From a virus (lineage: Duplodnaviria; Heunggongvirae; Uroviricota; Caudoviricetes), in the IMG/VR virus record IMGVR_UViG_2667528155_000009: 11,052 nt of DNA; one strand, written 5' to 3'. The notes below the pieces were generated by a model that saw nothing but the letters and a program-made list of their open reading frames with translations, was not told the DNA's origin and did not search any database. Below, piece by piece: positions 4,701-11,052 of this stretch (the stretch's first letter is position 1; each line of letters starts with the position of its first letter). Position numbers and translations under genes: made by a program.

Positions 4701-5204
4701 TTACAACAGATGGTCACTGGTCATGTCTCTGATACTGCTGGCGGTAACTGCTTCGTAGCGTCTGTATTGCTTGTATGGCTTCATCACACTCCCGTTCAAA
4801 ATCCGTAACAGGCGCACCAAGAAGTACCGCATTTGCCACTGCGGTTTTTTTAAAAACTGTGTAAGCAGATACTCGATGCTATGCCCTGCCGTGACCTGCT
4901 TATGCAGCTCCGGCGCGTGTATCCGGATTGCTTCAAGAACTGCGGGGATTAGCGCTGAAAACTTTTCGCGGTGCTCTGTCGTTTCGAGTTTTCGCCATCG
5001 CTGAAAAATGTTTATACGATTCCGGCGCCATGCTTCGTAATCCACCGTTCCGTCATCACGTTCTATACGGTGGACAGCAATATCTGGTCTCACTTGCTGT
5101 TCCAGAAAGGCGCGGGTGATCAACTGTGTTGCACTTTCCTGACTCATTGCGGGTGTAGCCAGCCAGGATGACAGTGCTTTGTTGGCATCCTCAGGGGTGA
5201 TCAT
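4701..5204 (-). CDS. YdaT-like protein (167 aa), occupying the cII-equivalent position
   Basis: Immediately downstream of the Cro-like gene; segments LITRAFLEQ and SALIPAVLEAI resemble Rac YdaT as I recall it. GAGGTG 7 nt upstream of the ATG; the start overlaps the end of the Cro-like gene (translational coupling). Confidence 0.55.
   Translation of the reverse strand: MITPEDANKALSSWLATPAMSQESATQLITRAFLEQQVRPDIAVHRIERDDGTVDYEAWRRNRINIFQRWRKLETTEHREKFSALIPAVLEAIRIHAPELHKQVTAGHSIEYLLTQFLKKPQWQMRYFLVRLLRILNGSVMKPYKQYRRYEAVTASSIRDMTSDHLL
4714..4730 (-). repeat. Boundary motif copy 1 (encodes the YdaT-like C-terminus RDMTSDHLL)
   Basis: Plus-strand TCACTGGTCATGTCTCT; identical 17-mer at 4125-4141. 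Confidence 0.7.
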
Positions 5205-5466
5205 CGTTGTTCACCTCTCTCGCATCCTTTAGTGGTAGATTTTGATGGCTAGGCAAAGCATCCGTTGGATTAGGGTAAAGAACTGAGTCGAGCTGATGCG
5301 GTGTAACTGCATACCCTACGGCCTCACAAAAAGGAATAATTCGTCGCGGTGGGAATTTTCCTGTTGTAACCCATAGACTTACGTTTTGCTGACTAGTTTT
5401 AAGACGTCGGGCGATCTCGGTCTGATTAGTGATGCCGAATAGTCGGCTCCTGGTTTTAAATTCCAT
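5191..5466 (-). CDS. Cro-like / YdaS-family HTH regulator (91 aa from the ATG at 5466)
   Basis: HTH segment ITNQTEIARRLKTSQQNVSLWV; C-terminal IIPFCEAVGYAVTPHQL resembles the YdaS pattern. GGAGG 4 nt upstream of the ATG at complement 5464-5466; the ORF-track start at 5484 is a GTG. Divergent from the repressor gene. Confidence 0.7.
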   Translation of the reverse strand: MEFKTRSRLFGITNQTEIARRLKTSQQNVSLWVTTGKFPPRRIIPFCEAVGYAVTPHQLDSVLYPNPTDALPSHQNLPLKDAREVNNDDHP

Positions 5467-5484
5467 ATATCCTCCAAATGTCAC

Positions 5485-5568: not shown

Positions 5569-6003
5569 ATGAAAAAAAACAACGAATCAGCTCAATACGA
5601 GACTTCAGCCAGAAGGATCAAACAGGTCCTGTATGAATTAGGCTGGAACCAAAGTCGCCTGGCTAAAGAAATTGGGGTTTCAGCTCAGGCGGTACAACAA
5701 TGGGCAAAAGGTACTTCTCGACCGAATGGCCCTAATCTAACTCGACTTTCTGAAGTCACAAGCAAACCTGAAGCATGGTTTTTCAGTGATGTCAGCGGGT
5801 TATCTGAGAGTCATGCAGTACATTTACCAGAAAGTAATGGTTCAGACTTTCTCCCGCTTAGCGATGAAGAGATCAGACTGCTAACTGTCTTCAGGAAATT
5901 TCCTTCTGTAGAGAGTAAAAACATGCTGTTAGCGTTTGAGATGAGACTTCAGGAGATAAAAGAATACTATTCCAAATACGCTAATCCCAATAAAAACCGA
6001 TAG
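5569..6003 (+). CDS. DicA/RacR-like prophage repressor (HTH_XRE, 144 aa, no S24 peptidase domain)
   Basis: HTH NQSRLAKEIGVSAQAVQQWAKG; C-terminal LSDEEIRLLTVFRKFPSVESKNMLLAFEMRLQEIKEY parallels DicA as I recall it. Divergent from the Cro-like gene across the operator region. Confidence 0.8.
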   Translation: MKKNNESAQYETSARRIKQVLYELGWNQSRLAKEIGVSAQAVQQWAKGTSRPNGPNLTRLSEVTSKPEAWFFSDVSGLSESHAVHLPESNGSDFLPLSDEEIRLLTVFRKFPSVESKNMLLAFEMRLQEIKEYYSKYANPNKNR

Positions 6004-6239: not shown

Positions 6240-6428
6240 GTGGACAAGACTGAACTGAAACACATTATCGCCCTGCTCCTGGAAGATGCAAAACGTCTTC
6301 AGCAGGTTGAACCAAATGCAGGCACTGAGGCCCGCATATGGTTGGCTAATAAAACACTTAATTCATTCAGAGAGTTAAGCGGTTTTGCAAGAGGGTCAGG
6401 TATCTCTACCGAACACCAACTTTCTTAG
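6240..6428 (+). CDS. Hypothetical small protein (62 aa, GTG start)
   Basis: GAGG 8 nt upstream of the GTG; first ORF downstream of the PL-like promoter. Overlaps the convergent minus-strand zinc-ribbon ORF by 23 nt. Uncertain. Confidence 0.3.
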   Translation: MDKTELKHIIALLLEDAKRLQQVEPNAGTEARIWLANKTLNSFRELSGFARGSGISTEHQLS

Positions 6429-6594
6429 CTAGCGCCTCCATAATAATAGAATGTCGTTCGCTAAGAATGCCGATTGCCGCCCCGCAAAGTGCACACTGAA
6501 CGAAGTGAATAATGTGACTGCAATTTTTCACTGAGGAATTGGTTTTTAACTCAAAAGAAGTTGATGGGCATTTTGGACAGGTTGTTACAGCCAT
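6406..6594 (-). CDS. Small zinc-ribbon-like protein (62 aa; CPKC ... CALC)
   Basis: Very good RBS (GGAGGG, 6-nt spacer, ATG at complement 6592-6594); Cys pairs CxxC and CxxC about 25 residues apart; conserved element A lies upstream on the minus strand. Confidence 0.45.
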   Translation of the reverse strand: MAVTTCPKCPSTSFELKTNSSVKNCSHIIHFVQCALCGAAIGILSERHSIIMEALAKKVGVR

Positions 6595-6660
6595 ATTTTA
6601 CCCTCCACGGGGTCGATGTTGGTGGAGTTCCCGACGGACGAGGTCGGGAATGTGCGCCGG

Positions 6661-6709
6661 ACACAGGTATAAATCCGGCATACGAAATTCGTATCACATG
6701 CAGGATATG
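6661..6709. repeat. Conserved intergenic element, copy A; contains the perfect 15-bp palindrome ATACGAAATTCGTAT (6680-6694)
   Basis: Same ordered blocks as copy B at 1561-1607. The palindrome is formed only in copy A. Confidence 0.6.
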
Positions 6710-6728
6710 TATTTAAACACGAGCACAT

Positions 6729-6803
6729 AACCGAAAACGCACTACGCAGAACCTTCCTTGTCGGGTCTGTCGTTAAATTTACTGCGATAGTGCGTTTCCG
6801 GTT
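6729..6803. repeat. Long imperfect inverted repeat (about 21-bp arms, about 32-nt spacer)
   Basis: AACCGAAAACGCACTACGCAG (6729-6749) against the reverse complement of CTGCGATAGTGCGTTTCCGGTT (6782-6803); one mismatch and one bulge. Confidence 0.55.
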
Positions 6804-6824
6804 ATGAGTGAAAATCATAACAGT

Positions 6825-6887
6825 GCTGTGTGTAGTCTTTGACGGTATCCGTTAACAAAGTTTTCCTGGCTGATACCGTCCTTTTTC
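6825..6887 (+). ncRNA. Candidate DicF-family sRNA with intrinsic terminator
   Basis: TTTGACGGTATCCGTT is close to the DicF core TTTGGCGGTATCAGTT as I recall it (14/16). Stem GACGGTATC (6841-6849) / GATACCGTC (6872-6880) is followed by CTTTTTC. Lies in the PL-like operon downstream of a DicA-like repressor, the position where dicF sits in Qin. Confidence 0.4.
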
Positions 6888-7071
6888 AGAATGAATTTTA
6901 TAGTGTGGTGAATGCGGCTCAGCGCACGTGACACAGTTAAAAACATGTCAGTCCTTCATCTGTTGATGGGTGGGAATGTTCGTCGGCAGTAATGGTTAGC
7001 TGTTTACTGTCACCGGGAGGCACCCGGCACCACACTCCAAAATTCATTGTGTTACCAGAATGGAGACAACT

Positions 7072-7362
7072 ATGCCAGTTACACCTGAAATAAAACAAAA
7101 CTCAGACTGGATGCGGCGCAACAAATCTGAACAAACCGCCCCTGCCTGTAAGCCTGGTATTATTCAGAAAATATTAAGTACGCTGAACCAGAAAGGTGAC
7201 CCCACCCTTATTCCTTGCGCTTATTGTGGCAAAGCCATCAACAAAAGTGAAATCGTGGAGCATGAACTTATTTATATAAACGGAAGTCAGCTCGCAAGAA
7301 AAACGAATCTATATTGCAGTAAACGATGTGCCGAATATGACCAGATGGCACATGAATCTTAA
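7072..7362 (+). CDS. Zinc-ribbon-like hypothetical protein (96 aa; CAYCGK ... CSKRC)
   Basis: GGAG 5 nt upstream of the second ATG at 7072; the ORF-track start at 7060 lacks an RBS. Confidence 0.55.
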   Translation: MPVTPEIKQNSDWMRRNKSEQTAPACKPGIIQKILSTLNQKGDPTLIPCAYCGKAINKSEIVEHELIYINGSQLARKTNLYCSKRCAEYDQMAHES

Positions 7363-7914: not shown

Positions 7915-10900
7915 ATGAGTGATAAGAAAGAAGATTTCGCGCTGTACTGCCCTGTTAAAAATGAAGAGGCCAGGAAACGACTTGGAATAAAAGCAGGCTT
8001 TTTCTGGGCAACTGCAAAAAAATTATCTGTGGCTGTTTCCCGCTGTATTGCTGCTATGGACGATAAGGGGTATGACGAGGATGACTTTAAAAAACCTGTT
8101 CGCGTCAATTACCCCGTCGTTAACGACCTGCCTCCTGAAGGCGTGTTTGATACTGAATTCTGCAACCGTTACGAAAAAGGCGGTCAGGGTGGTATCACAA
8201 TGGTACTTATCCCCGGCGCTGTTCCCGCCGATCCAATGCACGGCGAAGTCGGCAGGGATATTACTGGCAGCGGCAACGCAGACGCAGACGCAGACGCAGG
8301 CACAGACGCAGATAATGCTACGGACAATACCGAAAGTACGCTCCTCCCCGCTTACGCTTATAACGTCAACGGCGAACTGATGTCGGAAGTGGAAAAGGAA
8401 ATGTCGCAGCCTGTTTCAGGACTAAGTCTGCCACTTCGTTTCCTGGCGCAATTTAATAACGACTGTCCACAACATCAGGTCACACCAGAGCGTTTACGGG
8501 AGTTAAACCTTACAGAGCAGGATCCCGACAGTCGTACCGGAACTATTTTACTCGCCATCCAGAACAGAAAGGAACAGCTCGAAAAACTGGACACAAAAAA
8601 CCTGCATCCTTTGGCGACGTACATTGAAAAAGTATTTCCCTGCGGAAAACGACCACAACTCAATGATGTCATTAATTTTATCGATGCCGTACTTAATACA
8701 GACTATGTCGATCGCGGACTGCTCGTTAAGGAATGGTGCGAAGGTCGTCGAGCCGCGTGCGTAGAGCATGTAACAGCACCAGAAACCAGGCGTGATAATA
8801 CTGTGTCAGCGCAGACGGAAACGAAGACTACTGTCACTGAACGTCCGCGTCGTAGCGAAAAAACAACGCACCGGACGATTAATTATGAAATTGGCTGTGG
8901 CTTATATGACGGCGAGCTGGATCTTCATAACCTGAGGGAACCGCTGGATTTTGCGAAACGCATTATGGCGAAAGACCGGGAAGACTGGAAAGTATGGTCA
9001 GACACAATCAACTGCATCCCTGGCATCCTGAATTATGACCGCCAGACCATTATCGAGATGGTACGAAAAGCCCCCACCCCGACTTATCACAGTGCTGCAC
9101 TGCGCCGCGAGTGGTGTGATTCTTATCTGCGAGCCTGGGGACGGCTCGATCCCGACTGGAGCCAGAGCGCCGCTGTCAAAACAGCAGAGTCACATGAAGA
9201 TGTCTGTGCTGATATCAGGAAGGCCGGAAAGCGCCTGCGTGAAATTGAATCAGGAGTTGGGATCAATGAAGAAAAACAGACGACACAGGGAGAACTGGCA
9301 GATGAACCGTCAGCGCCTGAATCAGTGGAACCGGCTTCAGCTGAACATCAGCAGAATACGCAGCCGCTGGATGCTGAGGCATCTGTAAACACCACTAAAA
9401 CGGAATTCGATGTATTTGCTCTAATGCAGAACTCATCTGTTTATGGCAGCAAAAACACACAGGAGACGACCAGCAATGTGCAGGTTCAGGACGCTGAAAA
9501 GGATGAAAAACAGGCTGGTACTGAAGTTCAGTCAGGCGAAAGCAGTCTGGGAACTGGTGAAGAGTCAGATACCAGACAGCAAGCCGATGTAAACCAGAAT
9601 ACGGATTCTGTCGCCCAAAATAGCGATTCTGTAAACCAAACTGAACCAGTTTTGGCACAAACCGAGCCAGAAGTGCAATCTGACGAACCGGCTGTTGTTT
9701 ACCCCGCTTACTTCGAACCAGGCCGCTATGAGGGTCTGCCGAACGAGGTTTATCACGCAGCCAACGGTATCAGCTCGACAATGGTAAAAGATGCGCGGGT
9801 GAGCCTGATGTACTTCAATGCGCGCCACGTAGAGAAAACCATTATCAAAGAACGCTCTCCTGTACTGGATATCGGTAACCTGGTGCATGCACTGGCGTTG
9901 CAGCCAGATCAACTCGATGAAGAATTCAGCATTGAACCCGTAATTCCGGAAGGTGCATTTACCACCACGGCAACGATCCGCGCGTTTATTGATGAGCACA
10001 ACGCCAGCCTGACAGCGATGCTGTCAGCCGACGACATCAAAGCACTGTTAGAAGAGTACAACGCCACCCTTCCTGCTCAGGTTCAGTTAGGTGGTTCCGT
10101 GGAGGAAACTGGCCAGAGCTATATGTCGCTGCCAGAAGAGTTCCAGCGTCTCGAAGCGGACAAGAAGCAGACCGCAGCGGCAATGAAAGCCTGCATCAAG
10201 GAATACAACACCACACTGCCTGCACAAGTGAAAATCAGCGGTAGCCGTGATGCGTTACTCGAGCAGTTAGCAATCATCAATCCTGACCTGGTGGCGCAGG
10301 AAGCGCAGAAGCCCGCGCAGTTGAAAGTGTCCGGCACCAAAGCGGATCTGATTCAGGCCGTGAAGTCTGTTAATCCTGATGCCATCTTCGCCGACGAACT
10401 GCTGGATGCGTGGCGCGAAAATACGCAAGGGAAAGTGCTGGTCACCCGCCAGCAACTGAGCACTGCACTGAGCATTCAGAAAGCCCTGCTCGAGCACCCT
10501 ACAGCGGGCAAGCTACTGACACACCCGAGCCGCGCCGTTGAGGTGAGCTACTTCGGTTTTGACGACGAAACCGGTCTGGAAGTCCGCGTTCGTCCCGACC
10601 TTGAGATCGATCTTGACGGGGTGCGCATCGGCGCCGACCTGAAAACCATCAGCATGTGGAACATTAAACAGGAAGGTCTGCGCGCCAAACTGCACCGCGA
10701 AATCATCGACCGTGACTACCACCTGAGTGCTGCCATGTATTGCGAGACCGCAGCGCTTGACCAGTTCTTCTGGATTTTCGTCAACAAAGACGAGAACTAC
10801 CACTGGATCGCCATCATCGAGGCATCCGCCGAACTTCTGGAACTGGGCATGCTGGAGTACCGCAAGGCAATGCGCGCCATCGCTACCGGCTTTGACACTG

Positions 10901-10977
10901 GCGAGTGGCCAGCGCCGATCACCTCCGGTAACTCCGATGAAATAGCCGACTACACCGACGAACTGAACGATTTCGAC
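7915..10977 (+). CDS. recE: RecE-like exodeoxyribonuclease VIII, 1021 codons with no stop; 3' end replaced by the chimeric junction
   Basis: C-terminal PD-(D/E)XK-like block RVRPDLEIDLDGVRIGADLKTIS; position at the distal end of the PL-like operon of a Rac-like immunity region; GAGG 10 nt upstream of the ATG. The reading frame runs into N's and 16S sequence after codon 1021 (DFD). Family call is from recall, not a search. Confidence 0.7.
8275..8310 (+). repeat. In-frame tandem hexanucleotide repeat (GACGCA-like, 6 units) encoding a D/A-rich low-complexity tract
   Basis: AACGCA GACGCA GACGCA GACGCA GGCACA GACGCA, translating to NADADADAGTDA. Confidence 0.7.
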
Positions 10978-11052
10978 NCNTGCCATCNGANGNGCCCAGA
11001 TGGGATTAGCTAGTAGGTGGGGTAACGGCTCACCTAGGCGACGATCCCTAGC
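10978..11052 (+). rRNA. 16S rRNA gene fragment (about 75 nt, enterobacterial, corresponding to roughly positions 220-290 of E. coli 16S); not native to this locus
   Basis: TGCCATCNGANGNGCCCAGATGGGATTAGCTAGTAGGTGGGGTAACGGCTCACCTAGGCGACGATCCCTAGC matches the conserved 16S region as I recall it. Abrupt junction with N's at 10978, 10980, 10988, 10991 and 10993, inside what would otherwise be the RecE-like coding frame. Confidence 0.8.

Follow-up and report, generated by a model that had tools for sequence, protein, structure and literature searches.

The window, by which we mean the whole 11,052-nt stretch of DNA analysed, covers the early region of a lambdoid prophage resembling Rac. Its gene order (repressor, the hairpin studied here, a small RNA (sRNA), a YdaE-like ORF and RecE) matches that of the K-12 prophages Rac and Qin (Table 1). 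No credible ORF was found on the plus strand between positions 6595 and 7059, and the hairpin lies within a non-coding leader of ~470 nt. By blastn, this leader is ~70% identical at the DNA level to the non-coding leader located 5' of kilR in E. coli Rac-type prophages. A megablast search of positions 6400–7100 against complete E. coli genomes returned no match, and the kilR leaders were recovered by blastn only. As RNA, the whole leader is unusually structured (z = −5.3).

Table 1. Coordinates of genes and RNA features in the early region of the prophage.
Feature	Position	Strand	Details
YdaS/Cro-like gene	5191–5484	−	Divergent from the HTH repressor
HTH repressor	5569–6003	+	Immunity side
Hairpin 5' arm	6726–6749	+	CAUAACCG-A-AAACGCACUACGCAG; A6734 is the invariant mismatched A
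Apical loop	6750–6781	+	32 nt; motif GUCGUUAAAUUU at 6770–6781; TAAATT at 6774–6779 resembles a −10 hexamer
Hairpin 3' arm	6782–6806	+	CUGCG-A-UAGUGCGUUU-C-CGGUUAUG; A6787 bulged; C6798 is the invariant mismatched C
Linker	6807–6823	+	A/U-rich, single-stranded; between hairpin and sRNA seed
KilS-type sRNA core	6824–6886	+	Seed UGCUGUGUGUAGUCUUUG at 6824–6841; weakly DicF-like
sRNA intrinsic terminator	Stem 6841–6849 / 6872–6880; U5 6882–6886	+	From folding
STnc100/PasD-like domain	6880–7084	+	From the sRNA terminator to the first ORF; closing stem ~6889–6906 / ~7033–7050
YdaE-like ORF	7060–7362	+	First ORF past the leader; 96 aa with PF27493 as called in identical contigs
110-aa ORF		+	Between the YdaE-like ORF and RecE
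RecE	7915–11013	+	1032 aa

Neither a kil nor a dicB ORF follows the leader in the window; the corresponding leader of E. coli Rac leads into kilR and then ydaE. A 62-aa ORF on the minus strand (6406–6594), with two CxxC pairs and weak Lar/zinc-ribbon-like Pfam matches, occupies the place of sieB in Rac, and an identical protein was found in 99 blocks of the assembly collection. A plus-strand ORF that also encodes 62 aa (6240–6428) overlaps it convergently by 23 nt. Two further minus-strand ORFs, 6585–6818 (77 aa) and 6815–6946 (43 aa), extend over the hairpin and the sRNA; we treated them as spurious because they run across a covarying RNA structure and have no established family match. On the plus strand, two more hairpins precede the repeat (6627–6651 and 6652–6683). 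Both are common to the Qin and TOE17 leaders and missing from the K-12 Rac and PEC41 leaders, and the first of them shows compensatory changes, with CCCGAC/GUCGGG here and CUCCAC/GUGGAG in E. coli. Fifteen N characters are scattered near the window ends, at 58–86 and 10978–10993.

The hairpin and the adjacent sRNA

The sequence and its minimum free energy folds define a hairpin, CATAACCGAAAACGCACTACGCAG – 32 nt – CTGCGATAGTGCGTTTCCGGTTATG, whose stem comprises 24 Watson–Crick pairs (arms 6726–6749 / 6783–6806), with one A·C mismatch (A6734·C6798), one bulge (A6787) and a 32-nt loop as its irregularities. A repeat finder reported the ungapped arms as 6726–6744 / 6788–6806, 19 nt long and 95% complementary; reading past the bulged A6787 adds five more pairs, and the stem then reaches 6749/6782. 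The first-pass annotation had described an inverted repeat at 6729–6803 with arms of about 21 bp and a 32-nt spacer, which is essentially right, the stem being 3 bp longer at its base. In the whole 11-kb window, no other inverted repeat combines 18 or more complementary bases out of 19 with a loop of up to 63 nt, and the best inverted repeat obtained in 200 dinucleotide-preserving shuffles of the window reached 16/19.

Folded as plus-strand RNA, the hairpin has a free energy of −35.1 kcal/mol (z = −4.7), and as minus-strand RNA one of −39.3 kcal/mol (z = −6.1); on either strand, 0 of 200 shuffles equalled it. The slightly better fold of the minus strand, which had been anticipated from a G-U pair, arises because the A·C mismatch becomes a G·U pair there. 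We rejected an identity as an intrinsic terminator: the loop is 32 nt long, the stem is followed by AGUGAAAAUCAUAAC without a U-run, and a terminator scan of the sequence did not return the hairpin.

The sRNA seed starts 17 nt beyond the hairpin. At gathering thresholds, no Rfam family matched anywhere in the window, and at permissive thresholds none matched the hairpin itself. The DicF, RprA and STnc100 models do not contain the hairpin, and their sub-threshold matches flank it. DicF (RF00039) matched 6827–6881 with 24.1 bits against a gathering threshold of 48, short of the score for DicF membership; RprA (RF00034) matched 6767–6888 with 30.1 bits against 70; and STnc100 (RF02076) matched 6880–7084 with 39.5 bits against 47. 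At the equivalent position of the Rac prophage, E. coli K-12 has an annotated 98-nt sRNA, KilS (b4833), described by Bar et al. 2021 (PMC8175672). The sRNA of the window aligns with KilS over the seed and terminator, and does so better than with DicF, and it is therefore a KilS-type sRNA. Thus, the repeat does lie immediately upstream of an sRNA, as the first-pass annotation had stated, while the likeness of that sRNA to DicF is weak and KilS fits better.

For 18 nt, the seed has the same sequence as the 3' part of RprA, an sRNA of the core genome, and the prophage sRNA may therefore mimic part of the targeting region of RprA. A literature search found no paper mentioning both KilS and RprA.

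Conservation, strand and the level of action

In a five-way alignment, the same hairpin was found 5' of KilS in K-12 Rac and 5' of DicF in K-12 Qin. Prophage loci gathered from IMG/VR by patterns anchored on the sRNA seed or on the 3' arm contained 79 distinct hairpins, which fall into about seven sequence lineages. The hairpin precedes KilS-type seeds by 4–22 nt and DicF-type seeds by ~124 nt. The overall length of the element is 82–95 nt across lineages, and its loop varies between them in both sequence and length, with the motif GUCGUUAAAUUU common to the window, Qin, Rac and several other lineages. The breadth of the family, as sampled, covers Escherichia and IMG/VR prophages. A pattern applied to genome contigs, CGAARRCGCR N{30,60} YGCGYYTCCRGTT, was too degenerate: nearly all of the 120 matches listed were chance matches in unrelated phyla, and four true hairpins, from Escherichia and Shigella, were among them.

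We assessed covariation in an alignment (A3) of 46 distinct versions, with 18 pairs in a register common to all lineages; the tallies count sequences and not evolutionary events. Canonical pairs occupied 96.1% of the cells, compared with 88.6% for shuffled partners, and none of 500 shuffles scored as high. Sliding the partner by 1–3 columns left 27–47% canonical. Changes on both sides were seen in 9 of the 18 pairs, the compensatory examples including C-G to U-A (n = 11), A-U to G-C (n = 9) and U-A to G-C (n = 14), and RNAalifold independently predicted the identical helix. The A·C mismatch was invariant (46/46), and its flanks were almost so.

A covariance model, R1, was derived from alignment A5, which holds 35 hairpins from other lineages and excludes the window type and its closest relatives. 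R1 matched the window at 6722–6810 on the plus strand with 69.6 bits (E ~1e-16), compared with 26.8 bits on the minus strand, and the next unrelated match in the window scan scored 8.6 bits. Since the model was built without the lineage of the window and nevertheless matches it, family membership is established independently of the window. The window also bears the family signature, an A·C mismatch flanked by C-G/G-C below and by A-U above, with a G/C-rich core four pairs up. The core pairs C6738–G6794, G6739–C6793 and C6740–G6792 are present, and one core pair is A-U versus G-C, with both sides changed. Judged by sequence comparison, the copy in the window is a divergent member, at ~70% identity, of the family of hairpins upstream of DicF and KilS.

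The Qin DicF hairpin shares with that of the window a homologous stem, its register, the A·C mismatch and the GUCGUUAAAUUU loop motif. Both lie on the strand of the sRNA, in a leader between the immunity region and the division-inhibitor/recE side, and in both an STnc100-like domain follows the sRNA terminator. Unlike the window, Qin has a structured insert of ~115 nt between the hairpin and the sRNA, which places the seed 124 nt on as opposed to 17 nt. Its seed is of the DicF type, whereas that of the window is of the KilS type, and the downstream gene is dicB. In the Qin stem, moreover, a base is bulged after CAUAAC, and this bulge is missing from the window.

The Rac KilS locus resembles the window throughout its layout: hairpin, short A/U-rich linker, seed UGCUGUGUGUAGUC, terminator, STnc100-like domain and first ORF. 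KilS itself, located in the kilR 5' UTR, starts in the 3' arm of the hairpin. The Rac copy differs in its loop, which holds the extended −10 TGTTAAATT and a mapped transcription start site (TSS), where the window has CGTTAAATT. Its upper stem is of another sequence and uses U-G wobbles, and the leader is followed by kilR, whereas in the window it is followed by the YdaE-like gene.

The pattern of base pairs bears on the strand. On the plus strand, three positions alternate between C-G and U-G (in 15, 19 and 13 of the 46 sequences), and the 57 plus-strand wobble cells, spread over five or more positions, would be C·A mismatches on the minus strand or in DNA; these cells therefore argue for RNA and for the plus strand. 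Apart from the invariant A·C, wobble cells number 57 on the plus strand versus 17 on the minus strand, and with the A·C counted both strands are ~91% canonical. The Qin hairpin is part of the ydfABC-dicF-dicB operon, whose genes all run in one direction with none leftward, and plus-strand RNA must therefore be the relevant one there.

The better minus-strand fold in the window could suggest that the functional RNA is instead a minus-strand transcript, forming a 5'-UTR or regulatory structure of a divergent gene (the 62-aa ORF at 6406–6594 here, sieB in Rac). In keeping with this, the invariant A·C would be an invariant G·U on that strand, and a leftward gene starts 130–170 nt from the hairpin in both the window and Rac. 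The Qin-type copies, however, which are the most numerous, sit in the ydfC–dicF operon, where such a gene is missing. The wobble cells and the R1 scores also point to the plus strand, on which the mapped ends of DicF and KilS lie, and a promoter scan found no minus-strand promoter to the right of the hairpin. A minus-strand function is thus very improbable in our view, and we favour plus-strand RNA as the functional form; the genomic context settles the matter, and the invariant A·C leaves a small doubt.

The first-pass annotation had given equal weight to a DNA-level site for protein binding or recombination. A near-perfect inverted repeat in a prophage regulatory region could indeed act as a palindromic operator or as a site of recombination or cruciform formation, or could represent the terminal repeats of a miniature transposable element. 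Such a reading does not fit pairs that persist through compensatory changes and through T-G intermediates, which are mismatched in DNA, nor a spacer that varies between lineages in an element of 82–95 nt whose position relative to the sRNA is fixed. An operator or recombination site would be recognised by conserved half-sites, fixed spacing and no T-G, and here the arms covary. We rejected the transposable-element reading since the repeat occurs as a single copy in the window, with no flanking target duplication. Taken as a whole, a DNA-level role is exceedingly improbable, and the hairpin is better regarded as an element of plus-strand RNA.

Probable RNase III processing and a possible promoter in the Rac loop

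Host RNase III cuts long imperfect hairpins in phage early transcripts, as at the lambda N-leader, sib and T7 R1.1-type sites, and thereby separates functional RNA segments; the lambda and T7 sites typically have internal mismatches or loops close to the scissile bonds. The window hairpin would share their working principle and has no sequence homology to them, and they differ from it in use, as they process mRNAs or control decay and do not release an Hfq-type sRNA.

Cleavage by RNase III 5' of DicF has been known since 1990 (Faubladier et al. 1990). In Qin, DicF is excised from the polycistronic dicBF transcript (Faubladier et al. 1990, as described in bioRxiv 10.1101/2023.04.14.536235). The preprint describes a 190-nt DicF species whose 5' end, "between positions 813 and 814", depends on RNase III and which is gone in an rnc mutant, and a 53-nt DicF that needs RNase E; it reports that no internal promoter was found. 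Counted back from the DicF 3' end, the 5' end of the 190-nt species corresponds to position 946 of our Qin locus L123 (GTGCG|CTTCC). If 813 nt are counted from the predicted start point of the dicBp-like promoter TTGACC-17-TAATCT, which lies between dicA and ydfA, it corresponds to ~950–952. Both placements fall inside the 3' arm of the hairpin (L123 932–957), with an accuracy of about ±5 nt, and they rest on the reported length and on an unexplained numbering.

The top of the 3' arm is where the annotated 5' end of KilS (1418502) falls in Rac, and the A/U-rich linker that separates hairpin and seed there contains an RNase E site (1418471). A table comparing wild type with an rnc mutant (Gordon 2017) includes the Rac position 1418510, in the kilR–sieB spacer, among the sites covered only in the mutant. 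This position falls in the hairpin loop; the table is long and noisy, with 41 reads at 1418510 and hundreds of similar entries.

By homology to the Qin mapping, the cut in the 3' arm of the window is predicted at G6794|U6795, and the usual 2-nt 3' overhang would put the cut in the 5' arm at G6739|C6740. Between these predicted cuts lie two pairs, the C-G and G-C of the core, which are almost invariant (45/46 and 46/46), in agreement with the published in vivo rule for E. coli RNase III, according to which the positions between the cuts are paired and G/C-rich.

We propose that, upon read-through transcription of the early operon, the arms would pair on the plus strand into a duplex of ~24 bp, a length sufficient for host RNase III. 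By a staggered cut in the invariant G/C-rich core, at 6739|6740 and 6794|6795, the enzyme would then sever the upstream mRNA from an sRNA precursor of ~90 nt, running from the 3' arm to the terminator near 6886. With the new 5'-monophosphate and the A/U-rich linker available, RNase E would trim this precursor to a short sRNA with an exposed seed, the linker probably being the RNase E entry site that gives the short mature form. On the combined evidence, the hairpin is likely to be the RNase III processing hairpin found upstream of DicF and KilS, at which the host enzyme would cut an sRNA precursor from the phage transcript. The proposal of the first-pass annotation that the duplex resembles an RNase III processing site thus gains support from the homologous hairpins, from the 5' end of the Qin 190-nt species, and from the KilS 5' end and rnc-dependent site in Rac. 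We infer the same cleavages, and their exact positions, for the organism carrying the window by analogy with these prophages.

A second site may lie on the other side of the sRNA. The 3' end of a 72-nt DicF in Qin was reported as made by RNase III, and it maps in the long closing stem of the homologous STnc100-like domain, so that an RNase III duplex appears to stand on each side of the sRNA. By analogy, the closing stem of the STnc100/PasD-like domain in the window is probably a second RNase III site, 3' of the sRNA. This arrangement suggests that DicF and KilS sRNAs are flanked in this way, by the hairpin on the 5' side and by the closing stem on the 3' side.

The repeat is thereby given a concrete, testable function. 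The RNase III site that was mapped 5' of DicF in 1990 extends beyond E. coli K-12: it belongs to an RNA module, conserved and covarying, that many enterobacterial prophages carry ahead of at least two kinds of sRNA, DicF and KilS. Precursor boundaries thus become predictable, which helps the annotation of prophage sRNAs. The mechanism is not new, and its understanding is unchanged by the hairpin; the family-wide covariation, the invariant A·C and the occurrence of one module at both DicF and KilS loci are useful details.

The conservation of the A·C (46/46) and of its near-invariant flanks exceeds what a generic double-stranded RNA target needs. This could mean that the plus-strand hairpin serves mainly in something other than RNase III cleavage, such as protein docking through the A·C and the CGAA/UCCG flank as a specific determinant, or helping RNA polymerase in cis past the sRNA terminator into the genes beyond it. 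The latter role would answer to an early operon that has no recognisable N-like antiterminator, yet whose transcripts must pass the terminator at 6841–6886. The put RNAs of HK022, which act in cis on RNA polymerase, are two adjacent stem-loops just 3' of an early promoter, unlike the single long stem here. No Rfam family matches the hairpin, however, and the literature documents the RNase III dependence of the homologous Qin site. We therefore consider a main role of this kind quite unlikely, and retain RNase III processing as the preferred function.

A different route to the sRNA is indicated by the Rac prophage. In K-12, a mapped TSS and the 5' end of KilS are the same nucleotide (1418502), and the authors judged KilS to be capable of independent transcription (PMC8175672). 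Because this end is recorded as a TSS and not as a processing site, the Rac-type sRNA can arise without the hairpin forming. The Rac sequence TGTTAAATT, a good extended −10, lies inside the hairpin loop, 7 nt 5' of the TSS, and one lineage therefore seems to carry a promoter within the loop of its processing hairpin. The extended −10 was seen in the Rac-type loops of L124 (K-12 Rac, 1418502–1418520), L001 and L021. The window and Qin types have CGTTAAATT in the loop, in which TAAATT is kept, CG stands instead of TG, and no −35 is recognisable.

Extended to the window, this route would make TAAATT the −10 element, with transcription starting ~7 nt on, near G6786, and yielding the sRNA as a primary transcript with the 3' arm alone. 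The role of the 5' arm would then be limited to upstream DNA or to occasional read-through transcripts. Besides the Rac TSS and the extended −10 in front of it, the motif GTCGTTAAAT, common to several hairpin lineages including that of the window, is consistent with such a promoter. Against it stand the CG before TAAATT and the lack of a recognisable −35 in the window and Qin types, a promoter scan of the window that returned nothing at the hairpin loop, and the Qin 190-nt species, which is lost without RNase III at a site where no internal promoter was found. Moreover, three lineages keep the stem with unrelated loops that lack a −10-like hexamer, and the compensatory changes between arms 40–60 nt apart would be left unexplained. 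We consider this origin of the window sRNA unlikely. The substitution of CG for TG, the lack of a −35 and the three lineages with unrelated loops thus indicate that an internal promoter is probably lineage-specific and not the reason for the conservation of the stem, for which RNase III processing remains our preferred explanation.

The promoter and RNase III routes may coexist in Rac-type elements. In a dual-use arrangement, a weak or conditional loop promoter would make the sRNA as a primary transcript under repression of the prophage, while the arms would act as an RNase III site in read-through transcripts after induction, with nearly the same sRNA 5' end from both; the A·C would then be a specific determinant, of cleavage geometry or for a factor. 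We hold this arrangement to be conceivable though rather doubtful.

Among 96 distinct loci with a KilS seed, the hairpin was found upstream of the seed in 41, an STnc100-like domain took the place directly upstream in 19, and another sequence was present in 36; the hairpin is therefore not required for making the sRNA. The leaders of the KilS-seed loci (L003–L122) are built from shuffled modules, and in one of them, L025, an STnc100-like domain begins with the very bases that form the 3' end of the hairpin (GUUGUG).
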